From Basidioascus undulatus (lineage: Eukaryota), in assembly GCA_000826855.1 (NCBI GenBank), contig JTLS01000080.1, forward strand, positions 1-33,914: a stretch of DNA of 33,914 bases, in the 5' to 3' direction. The notes below the pieces were generated by a model. It worked only from the letters and a program-made list of their open reading frames with translations, searched no databases and was not told where the DNA came from. This document shows, one piece after another, positions 75 through 30,900 of this stretch. The position numbers were made by a program, and so were the translations under genes. The stretch's first letter is position 1. Each line of letters begins with the position of its first letter.

Positions 75-1352
75 CCAAGACAAGAAGGACAAGTCGCGCG
101 CGCCCATCACCGCCAAGCTCGTCGCCAACATGATCCAAAAAGCGGGGTGCGACCACGTCATTGTGCGTTGGCGGTGACCCATTTCCATCCTTGGGAGGTG
201 GGGAGGAGAGGAGCGAGAAGCTGATTGTCTGGGGGCGGCGGCGGCAGACGATGGACCTCCACGCCAGCCAGATCCAGGGCTTCTTTGACGTGCCTGTCGA
301 CAAGTGCGTTGCCTTCCCTTATCCACACTCCAGGAAATACTCTGACCTGGAAATCTGAACTGCAGCGTCAGTGCTTCGGCATTTGATTGTGGGCGCAGGG
401 AGGCGCGGGGTGCAGCGTACTGATGCGGGAGCGATGTTGGGACACTCTGCAGTTGTACGCCGAACCGTCAACGCTGCAGTTCGTCCGGGAAAACATCGAC
501 GTCAGCCAAGTCGTCATTGTCTCCCCCGACGCTGGCGGTGCGAAACGGTGGGTTGTAACTCCCGTCCCGTGCCATCCACCTCGCGATTGACCATGGGAGG
601 TGATTCGTTCGCGCAGGGCGACCTCCATCGCCGACAAGCTCAACGTGGACTTTGCGCTCTTCCATAAGGAGCGCAAGAAGGCGAACGAAGTTTCGCGCAT
701 GGTCCTCGTCGGCTCCGTCACCGGGAAAATCGCGATCCTCGTAGATGACATGGCGGACACGTGCGGGACGCTCGGCCTCGCCGCCTCCCACCTCGTCGAG
801 GCTGGCGCGAAGAAGGTGTACGCCATGGTCACCCACGGCATCCTCACTGGCCCCGCGCTCAAGGTCATCTCTGAGAGCGGGCTCGAGAAGCTTGTTGTCA
901 CCAACACCCTGCCCCAGGAGGAGAACCGCAGGCAGTGCGCAAAACTCGAGGAGATTGACATCAGCCATGTCCTCGCCGAGACGATCAGGAGAAGCCACTA
1001 TGGCGAGAGCGTTAGCGTGCGTGGCGGGTTCTTCCTCGTCTCTCTCCTTCTTCCTTCTCTTCCGCTGTGTTTGACTGACGTGGGTAGTCTTGCCTTCTAC
1101 ATCACAGGTCCTCTTTGACAACCTGCCATGTGAGTCTCCGCTCAACTCCCAATCCCTCGCACGCAACATCGTACTGACCCTCCCTCCCCTCTCGCAGAGT
1201 ACGCCCCACCCCGCCCCTCCCTACCCACATTCCTCTCCCCAGACTAACCGCCTTTCCCCGTCTCCTCCCTCCCCCCGCGCAGCGCCCACACCCTCTCGAC
1301 CCTCACGCCGCAGCTGACAGGCCTCGCGAACGGGACCGGCGGGGGCGCATAG
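75..1352 (+). CDS. PRS: Ribose-phosphate pyrophosphokinase (PRPP synthetase), 5'-partial; exons 75-162, 248-303, 366, 453-547, 617-1016, 1108-1129, 1198, 1283-1352
   Basis: Spliced translation gives [66 protein letters not shown] (PRPP-binding loop), THGIL and [18 protein letters not shown]. All introns are GT-AG. Confidence 0.96.
366..366 (+). other. Putative single-nucleotide exon (C) in PRS
   Basis: Context ctgcAG|C|GTcagt. Introns 304-365 (branch CTGAC 342-346) and 367-452 (branch CTGAT 420-424). It completes AA+C = Asn of VDNLY; without it the frame breaks. Confidence 0.82.
1198..1198 (+). other. Putative second single-nucleotide exon (A) in PRS
   Basis: Context tcgcAG|A|GTacgc. Introns 1130-1197 (CTGAC 1174-1178) and 1199-1282 (CTAAC 1244-1248, pyrimidine tract, CAG). 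T+A+C = Tyr gives LFDNLPY, open to TAG at 1350-1352. Confidence 0.68.
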
Positions 1353-2807: not shown

Positions 2808-4024
2808 TCAATCCCTTTCGCCCATTGTGCGCGGACGTAGGAAGCGTCGAAGGGCGGGGTCCACGTCCAGTGCTACCCGACCCGTTCCCCGCCGTTCAGC
2901 TTCCCGCGTGCCTTCCTTTCGACCTGGAACCCAACGCACATGGTCCACCCAGACTATCTCCTCCTCCTCCGAAAGGACAAGGTGCAAACTCGTCGGGAGC
3001 GCGATTTCGAGGAAGCAGTCCGTCTCCAGGAACGTGCCGAGCGTGTCGAGGAAGTCGGAGCGGAGGTGGCCGGGGATGTACGCCGTGTCAACTGAGCCGC
3101 CGATGAGGCGCGGGACGCCGTCCGTGAGCTCCGCGAGGCGCTCGCGCTGCACCGAGGAAATGTTGTAGTAGGCGGGGAGGCAGGCAGCCAGGCCGACGTG
3201 CGGCTCGCTGTGGAGCGAAGGAAATTGAATGAGGTGTGAGGGATACAACAGCAGAGAATTGTAGAACAGACGCACCCCCACCACCAATCTTTCCATATGC
3301 TCTCCCACTTCTCCCGCCAGTCCCCATCGAGCTCCGGGCTCAACCGGATTCCAGGCGGGCGGGGAACCTCGGCTGGTGAGCCCGTCGCCCCCCCCTCCTG
3401 CGCCCGGTTCGGGATGTACCGCGTCTTGAGGTCAGAGAGGTACCATATGCTGTCCTGGGGGAACTGGACGAGGCGGGGGATGTTGAGGAAGATGTCGAAG
3501 GGTGCGAAGAGATAGCCGTCGTAGCAGGGGTGCTGCTCCATCGCGGTGTACAGCATGTGGTGCGCCATCCGCCCCGCCATGTGCCACTGCCCCTCGGAGA
3601 GGTCCTCGTCCGACTTGAACGTGTCAGTGAGCACGTCGTACGAGTGCGCGAAGCCCGCGTCCTCGCGCGAGCCTGGGCCAATGTAGAGGATGTTTGGGAA
3701 GAACTCCGAGTAGACTTCGCGGTGCGCATCGAGGTTCCCCGCGTCGTAGCGCGGGTGGGAGAAGAAGACGACGAGGAGGACATCGTCGAACGCGTGGAAG
3801 GCGCGCGTTTGGTTGTAGGGGTCCTGGGAGGAGGGGGGTAGAGGTCTTCGAGCGCAGGCGGAGGCTGTGGAGGAGCCTGAGGCGCCGAGGCGAAGGGGAG
3901 CGTAGTCGAGCGGGGAAAGGAAGGAGCTCAAGAACGCAAATAGGAGAGCTGACGCCGTAAAACCAAAACAGAGGAGTATAATGTCCCTGCGTGATAGAGG
4001 GTGTGCCCGTATGAGCGACCACAT
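2808..4024 (-). CDS. Type II membrane protein, STELLO/DUF288-like (putative glycosyltransferase-related); exons 4024-3276 and 3207-2808
   Basis: N-terminal hydrophobic anchor (IILLCFGFTASALLFAFL). Motifs DVLLVVFFS, YSEFFPNILYIGP, HPCYDGYLFAPFDIFLN, ADTAY-like VDTAYIP and FLEIALPT. One GT-AG intron (3275-3208) joins WWW|GEPH in frame. Family call is from recalled motif similarity. Confidence 0.7.
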
Positions 4025-5923: not shown

Positions 5924-8900
5924 ATGTCAACCCCTGCTCAGATTCCGGAATCCAGCACCCCTGCTGAAACCAAGTCGGGTTCGGAACCAGCCGATTCGCC
6001 CACATATCCTTCCAAAAGCCAACGCCCGCGCAAGCGCGTAACCAAGGCATGCGAGGTTTGCAGGGCGAAACGCCAGAAGGTATCAACTTCAACCGGTGCT
6101 AGCGAGCGTGTCCACCCCGCGTCATGAAACTTGTTTACAGTGCGATGGTAAACAACCGCAATGCGGACCATGTAAAGCATTAGGGTGAGTAGAGCATAGC
6201 AATAGTAAACCACTACTTTCTGCTTCACTGGCTACGCTGCCGGAGCGTCCTTGGAGGCTTGACCGTCGACCACTCACGTCGTCGTCTTCGGATCTCTCAC
6301 CTTGCTCGATCAACTCGCTTCCTTGTAGTTCGAACGCTCACGTACCCATGGTGATGGATTTCTATCAACAGAGAGTCTTGTCGTTACGACCCAAACTCGA
6401 TCAAGCGGCACGTCGCGATATGTTTCATTGAAACTTCCTCATGCTCACCAATTGTTTGCTCGGTCAGGGGCCCGCCCAAAGGATACAAGTATAACGCCCC
6501 GTCCACGAAGCGCCGGAAAACGCTGGAGACCGGCGGCTCAGACGCAGCCGATGCGAAGGTCCCGCAACAGGCTGACGCTCAGAACGCACCTATCTCTTCG
6601 GTTCGCCATCCCTTCTTGTCCGTGCGTCCGTCCGAAAAAAAATTGATGGTTGAATGAACGACAGAATGCTTCCCGTCCTTCAGCGGGTCCGTCCCCGCAA
6701 GGTACATCCCCGACATCCGCCGAGACGGCGGCGCACTTGCTCGATGTCTTCTTCACAAATGGTGAGGCGCCAATCCATCAAGCCCTCATCAATCGTATGG
6801 TTAATCTACTCCCACCATTTCCTAACAGTGCACAACGTATGGCCTTTAATCTACAAGGTACGTACGGACGCTTCCGCTTCCACACATTATTGCCCTTGAC
6901 CCTTCTCAACTACATCAGCCCGCTTTTCACCCTACTCGAGCTCCACCGCTGCTGCTGAAGGCGATCCTCGCCATCGCTGCATGCATAGAGCCTTCTTCAG
7001 CCAAGGGTAAAGAGCCCGAGCCGTCGGCTGTGCAGCTCGACAAGGACGCGCTCTTTAACGAAGCCGAGCAGGCGCTGTACGCGACGCGGCTCGAAGCTCG
7101 GGTCGAGACTGTCCAGGCACTCGTTCTCCTCTCCCTCCGGCAGACAGGCTGCGGAAATAAGAGCTCGGCTTTTCTGTACGCCGGTGAGTGGAGACGTCGT
7201 ATTAGCTGTGCGAGCTGTTGGGCGCAAATGCTGACGCACTAGGAAAGGGATGGCGTGCACGATGGCTGTCGATCTCGGCTTGCACCACGATATGCGACCT
7301 TCCGGCGCACCTGGCACCACTAGGAGAGCTACATCATCAGCACCCAATCTCGTGGAGTCCGAAACGCGCTCGCGCGTCTACTGGAATTGCTACGTGCTGG
7401 ACAAGTGGGTTACGCAACAATGCATCGCGTGCCGTGGGCCTTTCTTTGCTAACGCTTCGCTGTTCACCAGGACACTCTCCGAAGAAACTGGCCACCCGCA
7501 CATCTTGCGCGCTTTTCTTGCGACTACCCCGCTACCGTCCGCGTACGAAGCAGACGAGCTCGAGCTCTGGCCGCCCTCCCCGTCTCCATCGATCGTCCCT
7601 CGCCGCTCGCATATCATATCCTGCTTCAATTCGACATGCAGACTAGCCGTCATTATCGAGCGCATCATGGACCTCGTCAGCGGTGAGGAAGGGGAGGTCA
7701 TGAAGGCGGATGAGGACAAGATCCGACCGCGAGACGAGCTCGCGGCAGAGCTCGAGAAGTGGAGAAGGTCGCAGCCTGACTTCCTAGCCGTCGAGGTCGC
7801 GCCCAAGGTTTGTCCTCTTCCTCATGTAGTAGTCAATGTCGCCGTAAGCCGCTCTTTTGTCTAGCTTTGCGTTTCTCAGTCTAACTCGCTCATGGACGGA
7901 TCCGCAGTGGTATCACTCTGCCATCATCCTCCTTCACCGCCGCTTCATCGACCTCGACAACGCCACAGAAGATTCTGGGTCTTCGTCGAGGTTCTCTGAT
8001 AGCCATACCCGCTGTACGGAAGCGGCTAACGACGTGGTCTCGCTCGTAGCGGCTCTCGACCGCCACCGACTCGTCGGCGTCTCGTGCTCGGATATCATAC
8101 ATATGGTCAGCACCGCGGCAATTGTATGTTCATATTTTCTTGGTCTTTCATTTTGACAGTCCTAACCGAATGCGTCCTGCTCAGCTGCACGGTAATGAAA
8201 CATCCCATACCCACTCCCCGCACGCGTGTTGCCTCCCTGCTAACGCAGCGTCCCTCCGCCACAAAGCGTTCAACTCAGCTCTACCAGACGTGGCCCTCGC
8301 GAATCAGGCCAAGATTAACTTTTCCCAATGTTGCCTCTGGCTTCGAGATATCAGCCACAGCTGGCCGTCCGCTAGTTCGCACAAGGTTTTCCTGGAAGGA
8401 CGTACGTTTTTCTTCACTGCACATCTGCTTCCTAACCCGTCATACTAAAACATGTCACGATTCAGTAATCCAAGGCGGACTCGGGCTCTCGGCAGATGTC
8501 GGTACATTTTCCAACCTACCGGATATAGCGCAGCCCGTTACCGACGTGGGGCCGACCAGCGCAGTAACACCTGCAAGCACGAGTGCGTCCACAAGCAACT
8601 AACCATTTTTGAACTATTGTTCATTATTCATGACTTCCGCTTTTCCGTCTTCCAGTCCGCACTCCGTCCTTGACGGCTCTTTCCCCTGACCCATCTCCCG
8701 CCCCGCCGCTTGCGCAGCCAGTGCCCACAGCCGTCTCCGCCCCAAACCCCAACCTGTTCGACCTACCGTCCTTCTACTGGAATTACGCCCTACCGTCGTC
8801 GCGATCCTCAACCGCGTCACCCACTGTTTGGGGATTCGACGTGCCGGCCGGCCAGGCGACCGCGGGAGTGAGGGACGAGGAGGCGTACTGGGCGCTGCTC

Positions 8901-14698: not shown

Positions 14699-17600
14699 AT
14701 GGACAAGATCAAGGGCGGCTCCGCGCTCAAGCGGGCGACGTCCTTTGCGCTTCAGTCCAACAACAAGGACACTGGACAGAGCAGCATGAACAACGCGACC
14801 AACATGCGCGGTTTGACGCAGGTGCGCGTTGTTGGCCCTGGGGCAGGCGAGGAGCGAGGTCTGGAGCTGACAGCGAGCTCGGGCGCACCACCAGTACATC
14901 GCCGACCTGCGAGCGTGTCGCGTGCGGGAGCTAGAGGAGAAGCGGATCAATAAGGAGATGGCACATATCCGGCAGCGGTTCAAGGGTGAGTGGGCCGCAC
15001 TCGCATGGTGAGATGGAGGGCAGGCTGACCGTTCGAACGGCGACAGAGGGCAACATGACGGGTTACCAGAAACGGAAATACGTCGCCAAGCTGCTGTTCA
15101 CCTACATCCTCGGCTACAAGGTCGACATTGGCCACATGGAGGCCGTGAACCTCATCTCGTCCACAAAATACTCGGAGAAGCAGATGGTCTGTTCCCCCTT
15201 TCCCCGATGACCATCTTCCCTTTGACTCAGCTGCTCATCGAGCTTGTTGCACTGCAGGGGTACCTCGCCCTTACGCTTCTTCTCCACGAAAACTCGGACC
15301 TCACGCGTCTCGTCATCAACTCGATCCGCAAGGACCTCGAGGACTTGAACGAGGTCAACAACTGCCTCGCGCTTCACGCGATCGCGAACCTCGGCGGTGC
15401 TGAGATGGCCGAGGCGCTGGGGGAGGACGTGCATCGGGCGCTGATATCTCCGTGAGTTAATCATGTTTACTTGGCGGTCAGGGTGGGGTGGGAGGAATGC
15501 TGGTGGAGAGCTGCGAGGAGCAGGCGTTGGAGATGTAGAAGTGGACCGGGCACAGGCGGAGAGGCAGCGCGGTGGCCCTGTGATCCGACTGGCAGTACTC
15601 ACGCTGACACTTCTTCCCGCCCCATCAGAACATCCTCGACCTTCGTCAAAAAAAAGGCGGCTCTCACCCTCCTCCGACTCTACCGCAAGCACCCGGACGT
15701 CATCCCCGCTGCCGAGTGGGCCCTGCGAATCGTCTCGGTCATGGACGACGACGACCTCGTAAGCGAGATCTTTTCCGTTCCAGTGCCAAGCTTCGGTGCC
15801 TGACGGGGGCGCCGTCGGTCTGGCAGGGGGTCGCGCTCGCGACGACTAGCCTCGTCATGACGCTCGCTCAAGATCACCTGGAGGCGTTCTCGGTCTGCTA
15901 CGCCAAGGCTGTCAACCGGCTTTCCAAGGTATGCGGACATTGGGTGCGAGACTGAAAGGAGACGTCAGACTAAAAGCATGCACGCCTCGACAGCTCGTCA
16001 TCGACCGCGAATTTTCGGCGGACTACATCTACTACAAGGTCCCCATACCTTGGCTGCAAGTCAAGCTCCTCCGCCTATTGCAGTACTACCCTCCGTCCGG
16101 TCAGTCTTCTGCAACCTTCTCGCACCCACTGTTGCTTTCTTTCTGACATCACGCGATGCACCCAGAGGACCCGGCTGTCCGGCTCGCAATCCACAACGTC
16201 CTGCACGAGATCCTCGAGGGCGCGCAAGATACGCCGAAGAACGTGCAGCACGCGAATGCACAGAACGCGGTCCTCTTCGAGGCGATCAACCTCGCGATCC
16301 ACCTCGACACCGAGTCGTCGATTGTTCACGCGGCCGCCGTCCTCCTCGGCAAGTTCATCCTCTCCAAGGAGACGAACGTGCGCTACCTCGGCCTCGACAC
16401 GATGGCGCACCTCGCCGCGTGCTCGGACAGCCTCGAGCCGATCAAGCGCCACCAGGACACGATCATCCTCAGCCTGCGCGACAAGGACATCAGCGTCCGC
16501 AGGCGCGGCCTCGACTTGCTCTACAGCATGTGCGACGTCACGAACGCGAAGGTCATCGTCGGCGAGCTCCTCAGGTACCTGTCCGTCGCGGACTACGGTC
16601 TACGCGAGGAGATGGTGCTCAAGATCGCCATCCTGACGGAGAAGTTTGCGACGGAGGTGAGCGCCTAGGGTTCTCGATGGGGATTAGCGGGGAGGCGCGC
16701 ATGCTGATGGCGACGGGCGATGACGCAGTACCAATGGTATGTCGACACCATCCTCCAGCTCATCCAATCCGCGGGCGAGCATGTCGGCGACGAGGTGTGG
16801 TACCGCGTCGTCCAGGTAAACTGCTTACGCATGCATGCAGTTGGAACACCGTCCGGCTGACACTCACATCTCACTACAGATCGTCACCAACACCGAGGAT
16901 CTGCAGCAGTACGCGGCGCAGACGGTGTACGAGCACCTGCGAAACCCGACGTGCCCGGAAAACCTTGTCAAGGTTGGCGGTAAGTCGACTTGGTCTGCCA
17001 TCTCGACTCTAACATGCGCAGTGGCTGATTGAGATGCGCAACAGGCTACATCCTGGGCGAATACGGGCACCTAATCGCGGACAACCCCGGCTGCAGCCCG
17101 ATCGAGCAGTTCCACGTGCTGCACTCCAAGTCCAACTTCAGCTCCGCGCAGACGCGCGCGCTCCTCCTCTCCACGTACCTCAAGTGGGTCAACCTCTTCC
17201 CCGAGATCAAGCCCCAGCTCGTCAGTGTCTTCGACCGCTACAGGCACGTCCTCGACGCCGAGCTCCAGCAGCGCGCATCCGAGTACCTCGCCATCTCAAC
17301 CCGCGACGACGACGACGCGCTCCTCCAGACGCTCTGCGAGGAGATGCCGCCGTTCCCCGAGCGCGAGAGCGCGCTGCTCAACCGCTTGCACCGCAAGCAC
17401 GGGGATACACAGGACCAGCGCACGTGGGTCATCGGCGGGAAGGAGGCGAACCGGGATCGGGAGCTCGCGCGGCTCAAGAGCCTCAAAAAGGCGGAGGGCG
17501 GCATTTTGGGCGGCGGGGTAGCGGCGATGGCGACGGGGACGGGGGCGGCGGCGGCAGCTGTTCCCCCGCGTGCCGCCGTCAACGGGAACGGCAACGTGCC

Positions 17601-18652
17601 GGTGGACGATCTCCTCGGCTCGGGCGACATCATGTCTTCCCTCAGCGGACTCGACCTCTCCTCACCGCCCGCTCAACCTCTCGCATCCCCCCCGCCGAAC
17701 CTCTTCCCCGAACCGATCACCACCTCGACTTCCCCTCCCTCTTCCTCCCTCTCCGCCACCGCGCCCATCCGCAACGCCGCCGTGGACAGTGCGTACGATC
17801 GCCTGTGCTACACGTACGAGGGCGTCCTGTACGAGTCGGACTTCCTCTCCATCTCGCTCAAGTCGGAGTACCACGGCCAGCTCGGTCGGCTCGCGCTCGT
17901 CTTCCGCAATAAGATCAGCTCCGCGGCGTTTACGAGCTTCTCGGCGACGATCGACGTGCCCCAAGCGAGCGCGCTCGCCGTCACGTTCCCGCAGATGACG
18001 AGCAGCACGATCGACGCCGGCGGCTCGCTCCAGCAGCCCGTGCACGTCGAGTGCAAGGACATCTTTGACGAGACGCCCATCCTGCGCGTCTCGTACCTCG
18101 CCGGCTCGCACCAGACGCTGGCGCTGCGGCTGCCCATCATCTTGAGCAAGTTCATCGAGCCTGTACAGTACGTTTCCATTTCCGCCCTTCTCGTCTATCG
18201 CACTTTGCTGACAGTGAGTGTGACGTCCGAATAGACTTGGCCAGAGCGACTTCTTCGAGCGATGGCGACAGATCGGCGGCCCTCCGCGCGAGGCGCAAGC
18301 CATCTTCCCGATTGCGCTCGACGCGGCGGGCGAGGTCGACGTTGCCGCCCACGGGCGCATCGTCTCTGGCCACCGGCTCGGGCTGCTTGACGGCATCGAC
18401 CCGAACCCGGTCAACAACGTCGGCGCGGGCGTGCTGCACACGAGCGCGGCGGGCAAGGTCGGGTGCCTGTTGCGGCTGGAGCCTAACAAGGACGCCAAGG
18501 TGCGCTTCGTTGCGATAAATTTCCTTTTCTACGAGAGGCATGTAACTGACGTTGGGGTGCGAGGACAGCTGTGTCGCTTGACGGTTCGCACGACCAACGA
18601 GGACGTTTCCTCGCGGCTGCTCCAACTCCTGCAACGACTGCTCACTGCATAG
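14699..18652 (+). CDS. APL3: AP-2 adaptor complex subunit alpha (alpha-adaptin), multi-exon
   Basis: [150 protein letters not shown]; ear domain [11 protein letters not shown] and [10 protein letters not shown]. Intron phases are consistent. Confidence 0.97.
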
Positions 18653-27900: not shown

Positions 27901-30900
27901 CCATTGACGACCTTGAAGTCGGCCGAGTTGTCGATCGTGATTGCGCGGCGCTGAGCGGCGGTCGCGTTGATGTCGAGACGGAGGTTGGTCGTGATCTCCG
28001 CAAGGTTGGGGAGGCGGTCCATGCCACCGTTGAGGTCGGCCCAGATCGGCTCGACTTGGGTGATGTCGAAGAGCAGCGGGTGCATCAGGCCGAGGATGTT
28101 GAATGCCATCTCCTTCGCCGAGAAGGTGCGGACGCCACACTTCTCGACGCCCTCCGCGACGATGTTGATCGCGCTCATGAGACCGGTGCCGCGAGTCCAA
28201 CTAAAAAGACAAGGTCCGCATCAGGATCGTTTCGAAAAGAAGTGTGAAAAGAGAAAGGACGCACCCGATGACCGCGCCGGCAAGGCAGAGATACTCGCCC
28301 CAGCTCTCGGCGCTCCAACGGTTGAAGAGTGTCTCGAGCGAGATCTTCGACTCGGAGTAGAGACCGTCCGAGCCGAAGAGACCGTGGTTGGGCGAGAGCG
28401 GGAGGACGACCTGCGTCGGGCGCGTGACGAAGTTGCGCGCGGCCTTCTTGGTCTTGACGGCGCCGAGCAGGCGGAGCAGGTTGACCAACATGATGCGGTG
28501 GGCGAGCTCGGACTTGTCGTCGATGCCGTCGATCTCGCGCCCGTTCTCGGGGAGGGCGGCGAAGGGGAGGATGTAGTCGAGGTCCATGCCGAGCGTGGAG
28601 TAGATGTACTCGACGAGCGCCTCGACGTCCTGCTTCGAGCCCTGGTTGAACGGTACGACGGTGAGGGAAGAGTCACGGCTACCGCACTCCTGGTAGACGG
28701 CCTGGTAGTACTCGACCGTGGCGCGGCTGTAGCGCGAGGTCGTGATGACGACGCGCGCGCCACCGGCCAGGAGGCCCTTCAGGATCTCGACGCCGATCGA
28801 GCCCTTGCCGACACCCGTGAGGAGCGCATTCTTCTGGCGGAAGGTCGTGCCGGACGTTGCGATCTCGGTGAGGATGTCGAGGTCTGCAGGGAAGAACACG
28901 TAAGGTCAGCTGAAAAGATCATGAAGAGCGAATCAGCATAAAACACTTACAGATCGACGTGAGCTTGGAGCTGTACTGCCAGTTGTTACCGAGCTTGCGC
29001 TTCAGGTGGAGGAACGGCAGCTTGTCCTCGGCGACCAGGGCAGACTCTGCGACAGTGGGGCGGAGGAACTGCGAGGACGAGCGGCGGCTGCGAGGGCCGG
29101 GCGCGGAGCGGCGCAGCTCAGCGGGACGGCCCAGCGAGCGCACGACTTCGCCGTAGAGGGACTGAGGAGGAAACGGTCAGCGCCTCGTCGTTTCATGGAA
29201 GAGCAAAGAAGACTCACCTTGATCGCAGCCTTGTGGCCACGGGAGACGTTCGGCTGCGCCTTGATGAGGCGCCAGAGCTTCGCGACGTCGGCCTGGACCT
29301 TGTCGAGGTTGACGCTGGCGCCGGTGATCTTTCCACCGGTAGCCATCTCCTTGACTGTAAACGGAAAGCACGTAAGTCATCTTCTGCAAACGTAGATATG
29401 CGTCGGAACGGACCGTAAGCCTCGAGCTTGCGAACCGACTCGCGGTTGACCTCCGAGTACTCGAGGTCGCCACGAGCGGTGACCTCGGTCTTAGGCGCAG
29501 TCGGGAAGGTGACTGCCAAGTCAATGTCAGCGTCGCACATCCAAGTAAACAAACCAACAAAAGCTGCTTACCATCCTTATACTTGGGCGGCTCGCCCGAT
29601 GCGACTGCTTCGCGGACGTTCTCGAGCAGCTGCTCGCCGAGCTCCTTCGCGAGCTTGTAGGTGGGGCCCAGCTCGACGTTGACGGTGGAGATGTAGTACT
29701 CCATGTAGTCGACGAGCGCGGGGTCGGCACGCGAAATGATGTTCAGGCAGCGTGAGGTGACTGTGCGAACAGAGTCAGCACGTCCAAGACAGGGATGAAG
29801 AGTTCAGGACGAAGACTCACTGTCGCGGTCAACGGTCGTGAGACGGCCGAAGATGATGTCGTAGAACATCGACAGCGCGTCCTGCATAAGAAACGAATCA
29901 GTGCTGTAGATAGGTGCAAAGGTCGGCGGGCAACGCACCTGACGAGCCCAGTTCCAGCTCGAGTCGAAGGTGCGCGCCTTGAGCGGCTCGAACACTGCAG
30001 GACGTATGGTCAGGATCGGAGAGATGAAGACGAACAGGAAGGAAAACGCACCAGGCATGACACCCTCAATGTAAGTGTCGCCGTGCTCCTTGGCGATGGC
30101 GTCCAGACGCTCCTGGAGAGCGGCCGAGTTGGCCTTCTCCTCGTCGTGGAGACGGTGGCCGGCACGGGCGTCGCGCTGCAGCAGAAAGGGAGTCAGTTGC
30201 CGAGCGAGGAGAATTAAGAGATAATCGAATGCGCACCTTGAGGTAGCGCAGGTAAAGGTCGACCTGCTGCGAGGCGAACTCGTTCTGCGCCTCCTGGAAC
30301 TTCTCGAGCTCCTCGCTGCTGATGACAGCGCCGCCGCCGCCGCCACCGCCGCCGCCGCCGCCAGCCGCGCCGCCAGCCGAGAGCGAGATGCCGGTCTGCT
30401 GAGCGTAAGCGGCGACGACAGAGTCGAGCCAGGCCTTCGCCTCGGGCTCGGAGCCGAGACGCTTGGGCGGCTCCATGGTGACACCGAGGAGGAGCGCGGC
30501 GTCCGAGCGGCCGGGACCGAGACCCCAATTCTTCGAAAGGTAGGCCTTGATGGCGGAGAGGTTGAAGCCACCGGGCATCTTGCCGCCGACGAGACGTGAG
30601 ACGAGACCGCTGGTGTGCTTACCGAGCGCGCCGGAGTAGCCGACCGAGAGCGCAGCGCCCAGCTCGTCGAGAGGAAGCTCCTCGCCCTTCTCAGGAGCGC
30701 TGAAGGGAAAAGAACGTCAGTCGAAGCTTCTTTAGATTGAATGGAGACGGACGCAAGACGTACGAGCTAAACTCGGCCTGGAGGTCACCGAGGATCTCAT
30801 TCTGCAGGGTCGACTTGCCGCCGACGAGGTCCTTGATCGCCTTGGAGAGCGGGACCTCGTCAACGCGCTTCTTGAGCTTCTGCGCGATGATGATGCGAAG

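Follow-up and report, generated by a model that had tools for sequence, protein, structure and literature searches.

The gene for APC11 in Arabidopsis reportedly contains an exon of a single nucleotide (PMC4674806). Microexons of this size in the plant genes APC11 and VPS55 are conserved and have been validated by reverse transcription–PCR, and VPS55 gives rise to alternative forms (PMC8831610). Among fungi, Coprinopsis cinerea has 13 one-nucleotide exons, in as many genes, according to an annotation based on long reads (PMC12230235), and the CYP621A gene of Fusarium carries a one-nucleotide exon, a G within AGGGT, that is conserved in 24 genes and has been confirmed by SRA reads (Nelson and Syed 2026; PMC12940212). 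Here we describe a ribose-phosphate pyrophosphokinase (PRPS, or PRPP synthetase) gene that appears to hold two such exons. The gene lies at the start of a 33,914-nucleotide stretch of the Basidioascus undulatus contig JTLS01000080.1 (assembly GCA_000826855.1), the whole of which we refer to as the window. One of the two exons, C366, is of a type that recurs in the PRPS genes of other fungi; the other, A1198, near the end of the coding sequence, is the principal subject of this report and is probably a genuine one-nucleotide exon between two ordinary short U2-type introns.

The locus can be set against each of the systems described so far. As in C. cinerea, we are dealing with a basidiomycete with short introns, in which a single base stands between spliceosomal introns and its omission breaks the gene model; unlike the C. 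cinerea exons, which are documented by long-read complementary DNA (cDNA) and occur one to a gene, those predicted for PRPS would number two in one gene. The resemblance to CYP621A is that a phase mismatch of one base is solved by an AG-N-GT element within the intervening sequence, with the restoration of a conserved residue. In contrast to CYP621A, the base at 1198 is an A, the predicted exon would be lineage-specific, and the exon downstream of it is poorly conserved. With the plant microexons the locus has in common a single base between two introns that annotation routinely misses. The plant microexons are ancient and affect the N-terminus; C366 is comparable to them in age, and A1198 is not. 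The coexistence in VPS55 of forms that contain the base and forms that retain an intron is a precedent for the idea of a splicing switch.

Two further systems invite comparison. Stwintrons, the spliceosomal twin introns of fungi (PMC5587772, PMC5639578), are likewise resolved by two consecutive splicing reactions in one short stretch of transcript. In a stwintron, however, the inner intron interrupts the donor, the branch site, or the acceptor of the outer one and leaves no base behind, whereas A1198 is surrounded by six intact signals and one base would be kept. We considered a stwintron reading of 1130–1282 and rejected it: no genomic signal is interrupted, the product is the same whichever intron is removed first, and no new signal is created. 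The ratchet point (AG/GT) of recursive splicing leaves zero bases in the messenger RNA (mRNA) and serves very long introns. The A1198 junction resembles a ratchet point in having a donor immediately after an acceptor and in the stepwise removal that this would entail, but one coding base would be kept and the introns measure 68 and 84 nucleotides (nt); a zero-base recursive site at 1198 was rejected because one base would remain in the mRNA. In the open-access literature that we searched, we found no paper naming a PRPS microexon or a gene with two one-nucleotide exons, and PRPS is not named in those supplements of the C. cinerea study (PMC12230235) that were examined as text.

Results

A Probable One-Nucleotide Exon at Position 1198

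The short exon that encodes VLFDNLP ends in phase 1, with a single base of the next codon, and on either side of A1198 stands a complete U2-type intron with a donor, a branch site, and an acceptor. When both introns are taken out and A1198 is kept, the mRNA reads CCA-TAC-GCC and the protein ends in LFDNLPY followed by 22 residues that close with GGGA. A1198 is needed both for an in-frame join and for the conserved Tyr, and the best frame downstream requires two bases (T and A) before C1283, this downstream frame being itself weakly supported. The sequence elements that an earlier note on this DNA had placed around A1198 were each found where it put them when the sequence was read by coordinate, and the three C-termini that it predicted proved to be exact when the pieces were translated. 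The first is the form just given. In the second, only 1130–1197 is removed, T+A+G makes a TAG stop, and the protein ends in DNLP (the retained form, CCATAGTACG). In the third, A1198 is skipped, joining 1129 to 1283 and placing CCAT next to CGCC (CCATACGCC), with a frameshifted end shown as 15 residues.

Other outcomes had gone unlisted. Read without splicing, the frame stays open up to the TGA (1315–1317) that also ends the A-skipped form, a single intron from 1130 to 1320 also lands in the frame of the last exon, and the use of an acceptor at 1313 after the A1198 exon gives an end of LPY and a stop. In addition, A1198 and G1199 constitute a second AG after the acceptor (CAG/AG at 1195–1200), in an arrangement that is NAGNAG-like; this second AG, if used, would remove the A and destroy the donor at 1199.

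The residue that A1198 would help to encode is a conserved one. Of the 120 best homologues, 100 have Tyr directly after the C-terminal [VLIM]P, seven have Phe, six have Leu, and seven could not be parsed. Among 240 fetched PRPS proteins, of which 205 could be parsed, Tyr follows the C-terminal Pro in 182 (Phe in 13, Leu in eight, Met in one), a single protein ends directly at Pro, and neither Cys nor Ser was found after Pro in any of the 205. A scan of metagenomes yielded 80 fungal PRPS loci with a best identity of 81%; Tyr follows Pro in 49 of the 62 that could be parsed at this point (Phe in seven, other residues in six), and 43 of the 80 end exactly in VPY. Meanwhile, among the nine GT–AG isoforms that we computed for the window, Tyr follows Pro only in the forms that keep A1198. 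The C-terminus of the Wallemia protein reads SVLFSNLPY (ending in SVLFSNLPYTLGAN), the counterpart of which in the window is SVLFDNLP(Y). The earlier note had called for a check that orthologues end in Pro-Tyr plus a tail: Pro-Tyr is indeed present, and a short tail occurs in some lineages.

We applied a strict intron model (donor GT[AGC]NG[TC], a CTRAY branch site 8–45 nt before YAG, the first-AG rule, and a length of 45–140 nt). In the 33.9-kb window, which was the ground covered by our search for pairs of the YAG-N-GT type, the model found 42 intron-like segments on the forward strand and 63 on the reverse strand. Adjacent introns separated by a spacer of 0–12 nt occurred only twice in the whole window; both pairs have a spacer of 1, and both are in PRPS (at 366 and 1198). 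When the inside of 1130–1282 was shuffled 200,000 times, a full acceptor-N-donor junction with a spacer of 1 arose once, and junctions with spacers of 0–5 combined arose ten times. The window scan and the shuffles indicate, as the earlier note had supposed, that chance does not account for a pair of AG-N-GT structures within a single gene. A looser scan for pairs, which allowed any GT or GC donor and a degenerate branch site, was noisy and gave matches at all spacers from 0 to 15; the sole additional spacer-1 candidate with short-intron features was C2226 (AG/C/GT within 2164–2383, with flanks of 62 and 157 nt). We set C2226 aside as probably due to chance, as it falls inside an uninterrupted open reading frame of 297 codons (1656–2549) that has no Pfam match.

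For the scoring of individual signals, 75 intron-like segments of the window supplied the matrix. By this measure donor 1130 reaches the 89th percentile and acceptor 1197 the 36th, and the signals of the second intron rank lower, donor 1199 at the 19th and acceptor 1282 at the 21st. All four lie inside the range of the 75 segments; by comparison, the obligatory donor at 367 reaches only the 12th. The lengths of intron-like segments in the window peak at 49–75 nt and are flat past about 100 nt, so that the two introns, at 68 and 84 nt, are in or near the peak and a single intron of 153 or 191 nt would lie in the flat background.

The frame that follows from inclusion of A1198 is the best of the three in the last exon, with G or C at the third codon position (GC3) in 20 of 22 codons and in 10 of 10 for 1284–1313, and the end of the tail, NGTGGGA, recalls the SNGVGA of Tremellomycetes.

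Points That Weigh against the Exon

A number of observations count against the interpretation of A1198 as an exon. One-nucleotide exons are rare a priori: for a basidiomycete whose genome is well annotated, 13 are listed (PMC12230235). The second intron has a donor (1199, GTACGC) and an acceptor (1282) that both rank in about the lowest 20% of window introns. In the tail, the inclusion frame leads by 13.2 bits, as against a median of 34 for windows of real exons, and 533 of 20,000 shuffles do as well, as do 2.2% of intron windows and 6% of downstream windows; the tail may be under hardly any constraint, or may be noncoding. At 22 residues it also exceeds what is seen in homologues of the Tremellomycete or Agaricomycete type, 79 of 113 parsed homologues having 1–7 residues after Pro. 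Neither in the 15 loci read at their 3′ end nor in the other parsed metagenome loci did we find an intron inside the Pro-Tyr codon pair. Unlike C366, A1198 thus has no shared layout among the relatives examined; it would be lineage-specific, and conservation provides no check on it. Finally, the protein and metagenome collections that we searched contained no protein or contig with more than 84% identity to the large exon of the gene, a sign that the window belongs to a sparsely sampled basidiomycete.

In one PRPS locus at 69% identity (L063), an intron (GTGAGT...TACTGAT...CACAG) is found at about 2900–3050, one codon past the Pro, after V-P-V, and is followed by a long unrelated tail. The position of this intron, one codon after Pro, implies that this part of the C-terminus has gained introns more than once.

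In weighing the matter we took into account the rarity of one-nucleotide exons, the odds at the level of the protein (182 proteins with Tyr versus at most one for each rival residue), and the chance that the signals arose by accident. The likelihoods expressed here for the exon and its rivals are our own weighing and not a computed posterior. Of what had previously been proposed for A1198, the one-nucleotide exon stands as very probable, given the conservation of Tyr, the signals, and the shuffles, whereas the proposed regulatory switch finds no support.

How the Junction Might Be Spliced

We suppose that both introns are removed, most likely sequentially because the first acceptor and the second donor overlap: the U1 site of the second donor (AGA/GTACGC) would share bases with the AG of the first intron. 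Either order would lead to CCA-TAC-GCC, and after either removal A1198 would lie within an exon of normal length, the second step then being an ordinary one. Were the first intron to be removed first, the intermediate would carry an in-frame TAG because the G of the donor follows T and A, and no regulatory explanation for this stop codon is needed. The product would have the conserved C-terminal Pro-Tyr restored and, beyond it, a lineage-specific tail of 22 residues; the alternative, if acceptor 1313 were used, would be a protein with Tyr as its last residue. Acceptor 1282 is favored over 1313 by the first-AG rule and by the branch site at 1247. We infer in this way the retention of A1198 in the mRNA, the order of splicing, and the choice of the 3′ acceptor.

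The two introns are alike at their 3′ ends (1178–1197 and 1262–1282), which have 11 identical bases (CCTCCCTCCCC) and then CGCAG. A global alignment of the whole introns scored 11.5, as compared to a mean of 1.9 (standard deviation 3.1) for shuffled sequences, the best of 500 shuffles equaling 11.5. The likeness of the 3′ ends could reflect a partial duplication or merely the presence of two pyrimidine tracts.

Other Ways to Read the Junction

The alternative that survives best, although it is unlikely, is that only 1130–1197 is spliced, that the protein stops at TAG after LFDNLP, and that 1199–1282 is an intron-like piece of the 3′ untranslated region. A protein of this kind would be only one residue shorter than many homologues (the 43 loci with VPY), and the weak coding signal of the tail and the 19th-percentile rank of donor 1199 also speak for it. 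Set against this, only one of the 205 parsed homologues ends at Pro and 182 have Tyr, neither of the other two frames does better than the inclusion frame, and the occurrence of a full donor, branch site, and acceptor one base past a real acceptor would be improbable (about 0.002, a rough inferred estimate).

Unlikely as well, and a little more so, is the reading offered by the earlier note, in which the one-nucleotide exon is real and retention and skipping serve as a regulated switch between three C-termini. The three ends do exist on paper, but the switch turns out to be arithmetic on the sequence: TAG forms automatically when the G of a donor follows T and A, as it would with every donor that starts with G. 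Moreover, the alternative tails match no orthologue among the homologues compared. Retained introns in fungal transcripts mostly represent noise at a low level, and we counted this against a regulated switch. Precedents for regulation are nevertheless to be found in the VPS55 microexon of plants, the presence or absence of which leads to two proteins (PMC8831610), and in the gene for a transcription factor of Trichoderma, a microexon of which is reported to be regulated (PMC11121469). Retention and skipping at A1198 probably yield minor side products of splicing and not the outputs of a switch.

The two readings with a single intron, and the one with no intron, are improbable even when taken together. 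It is very unlikely that one long intron occupies 1130–1320, the internal AG-A-GT being a silent accident. Such an intron would be of the GT–AG type, would keep the frame of the final NGTGGGA, and would bring the tail closer to the length seen in orthologues, about that of Tremellomycetes. It would, however, be 191 nt long, far beyond the length peak of the window, and its acceptor stands at the 13th percentile and follows its sole CTRAY by only 3 nt. The AGs at 1282 and 1313, which come earlier, would have to be bypassed, and the residue after Pro would be Cys, which none of the 205 proteins has at this position. The internal junction arose only once when the shorter version, of 153 nt, was shuffled 200,000 times, and the codons of 1284–1313, which this intron would consume, are those with GC3 of 10 out of 10 in the inclusion frame.

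Still more improbable is a single intron from 1130 to 1282 that skips A1198 and gives the frameshifted end. Donor 1130 is strong and the acceptor looks real, and an aligner or gene finder would pick this A-skipped form. But Tyr is lost in favor of Ser, which follows Pro in none of the 205 proteins, the tail frame is the worst of the three, the length of 153 nt is atypical, and the internal junction is again a 1-in-200,000 event in shuffles. The least probable reading is that there is no splicing past 1108 and that translation runs through to the TGA at 1315–1317 with a tail of 62 residues, rich in Pro and Ser, after DNLP: although the unspliced frame is open, no frame stands out over 1129–1281 (scores of −54, −58, and −60), donor 1130 ranks at the 89th percentile, and Tyr is lost.

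The Older One-Nucleotide Exon of the Same Gene

Upstream in the same gene is C366. The orthologue motif VDN-LYAEP (FFDVPVDNLYAEP) was obtained only when both introns (304–365 and 367–452) were taken out and C366 was kept, and the other four forms at 304–452 gave a frame shift or a stop. The obligatory nature of C366 implies that the spliceosome of this organism must be able to handle one-nucleotide exons.

The same layout (AA/GT..AG/C or T/GT..AG) was found at 42 of the 80 metagenome loci, and three further loci had a layout of the C366 type with a GC donor. Among the remaining loci, four have a single phase-0 intron after AAT, two have a single phase-2 intron, 25 are uninterrupted (these are cDNA-like contigs or come from other fungi), and four could not be parsed. 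At three loci (L010, L018, and L019) the intron after the one-base exon, between GFFDVPVD and LYAEP, opens with GCAAGT and would be a GC–AG intron. We also sought a cDNA-like contig and a genomic locus of one species as a test of C366-type splicing, and the sole match was one of 44 nt at 95%. The earlier note had inferred a lineage that splices one-nucleotide exons as a matter of routine; the 42 loci with the C366 layout and the 13 exons of C. cinerea speak against such splicing being peculiar to this lineage.

At the VDN joint, 68 of the 120 best database proteins read VDN, 38 are aberrant exactly there, and 14 could not be parsed. The aberrations are deletions, insertions, or substitutions (for example, VDN is missing or is replaced by VDK plus extra residues), and the PRPS entries inspected included models from Cryptococcus, Kwoniella, Naganishia, and Papiliotrema. 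With 38 of 120 proteins aberrant at the joint, many basidiomycete PRPS models, including those of Cryptococcus and Kwoniella, are wrong at an invariant motif. By these comparisons the C366 type of one-nucleotide exon is old, widespread, and regularly misannotated.

Identity of the Gene and Its Surroundings

As judged from its domains and its relatives, the forward strand of the window at 75–1352 is the 3′ two-thirds of a basidiomycete PRPS gene (Table 1), the N-terminal third being outside the window. The predicted protein has the Pribosyltran_N, Pribosyltran, and Pribosyl_synth domains of class I PRPS and high identity to named PRPS proteins; Pfam matches on the exons were PF14572 (E = 2.8e-35), PF00156 (E = 3.1e-9), and PF13793 (E = 4.1e-7). 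In the protein collection, the 133-residue large exon was 83–84% identical to PRPS of Tremellomycetes and 77–81% identical to that of Wallemia, Ustilaginomycotina, and Agaricomycetes.

Table 1. Exons and introns of the PRPS gene in the window
Position	Strand	Feature	Remarks
75..162	+	PRPS coding exon	Codons 76–162 give 29 residues; PF13793 on 76–162; agrees with orthologues; window opens within the preceding intron
163..247	+	Intron, 85 nt	GTGCGT...CAG; links CDHVI to TMDLHAS, as in orthologues
248..303	+	Coding exon	Ends GAC AA (bases 1 and 2 of the Asn codon)
304..365	+	Intron, 62 nt	GTGCGT...CTGAC...CAG; upstream of the first one-nucleotide exon
366..366	+	First one-nucleotide exon, C	Finishes AAC, Asn of the VDN-LYAEP motif
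367..452	+	Intron, 86 nt	GTCAGT...CTGAT...CAG; donor score in 12th percentile among window introns
453..547	+	Coding exon	31 residues plus CG
548..616	+	Intron, 69 nt	GTGGGT...CAG; from intron map and signal scores
617..1016	+	Large coding exon, catalytic part of PRPP synthetase	P0001, 133 residues from 618; PF14572, PF00156
1017..1107	+	Intron, 91 nt	GTGCGT...CACAG; links GESVS to VLFDNLP; intron at a similar position in relatives
1108..1129	+	Short coding exon	VLFDNLP plus T (base 1 of the Tyr codon); ends CTG CCA T
1130..1197	+	Intron, 68 nt	GTGAGT...TACTGAC (1172–1178)...CGCAG; branch A 20 nt before AG
1198..1198	+	Proposed second one-nucleotide exon, A	Would be the middle base of TAC (Tyr)
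1199..1282	+	Intron, 84 nt	GTACGC...CTAAC (1244–1248)...CGCAG; branch A 35 nt before AG
1283..1352	+	Last coding exon	C (base 3 of the Tyr codon), 22 residues, and TAG stop at 1350–1352; weak frame support

Directly past the PRPS stop codon, at 1371–1425, is a run of repeats resembling GGGAGCTGGGAGGAGCTGGGAG. Other genes of the window include those for a fungal transcription factor (7235–7861, forward strand; PF04082), an AP-2 alpha adaptin (17029–18231, forward strand; PF02883 and PF01602), and a type I fatty-acid synthase (29807–30766, reverse strand; PF18314). The AP-2 alpha adaptin is closest to that of Wallemia, at 58–59% identity versus at most 53% for all others, a hint that the organism perhaps has its place on the Wallemia side of the Basidiomycota.

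Discussion

One-base exons as a kind are already known; what appears to be unusual here is the presence of two in one PRPS gene. An exon cannot physically be smaller than one base, and few of this size have been documented. Each new example tests how the spliceosome recognizes an acceptor and a donor that overlap. Gene finders and read aligners cannot place exons of this size, which aligners miss unless the junctions are supplied to them (PMC8831610). A by-product of our analysis is a conserved and widely misannotated one-nucleotide exon, that of the C366 type, in the PRPS genes of basidiomycetes.

A more far-reaching scenario, which we regard as unlikely when taken as a whole, is that C366 is ancient and shared across the Basidiomycota and that A1198 is new, having come about perhaps through a duplicated 3′ end of the neighboring intron. 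Under this scenario the gene would be the first that we have come across with two one-nucleotide exons, and the order of splicing could choose among Tyr plus the tail, the stop after Pro, and the frameshift. Should the duplication origin of A1198 be true, then one-nucleotide exons can arise de novo beside existing introns. If A1198 is confirmed, a gene with both an old and a young one-nucleotide exon would be a natural system in which to address questions of exon origin and splice order.

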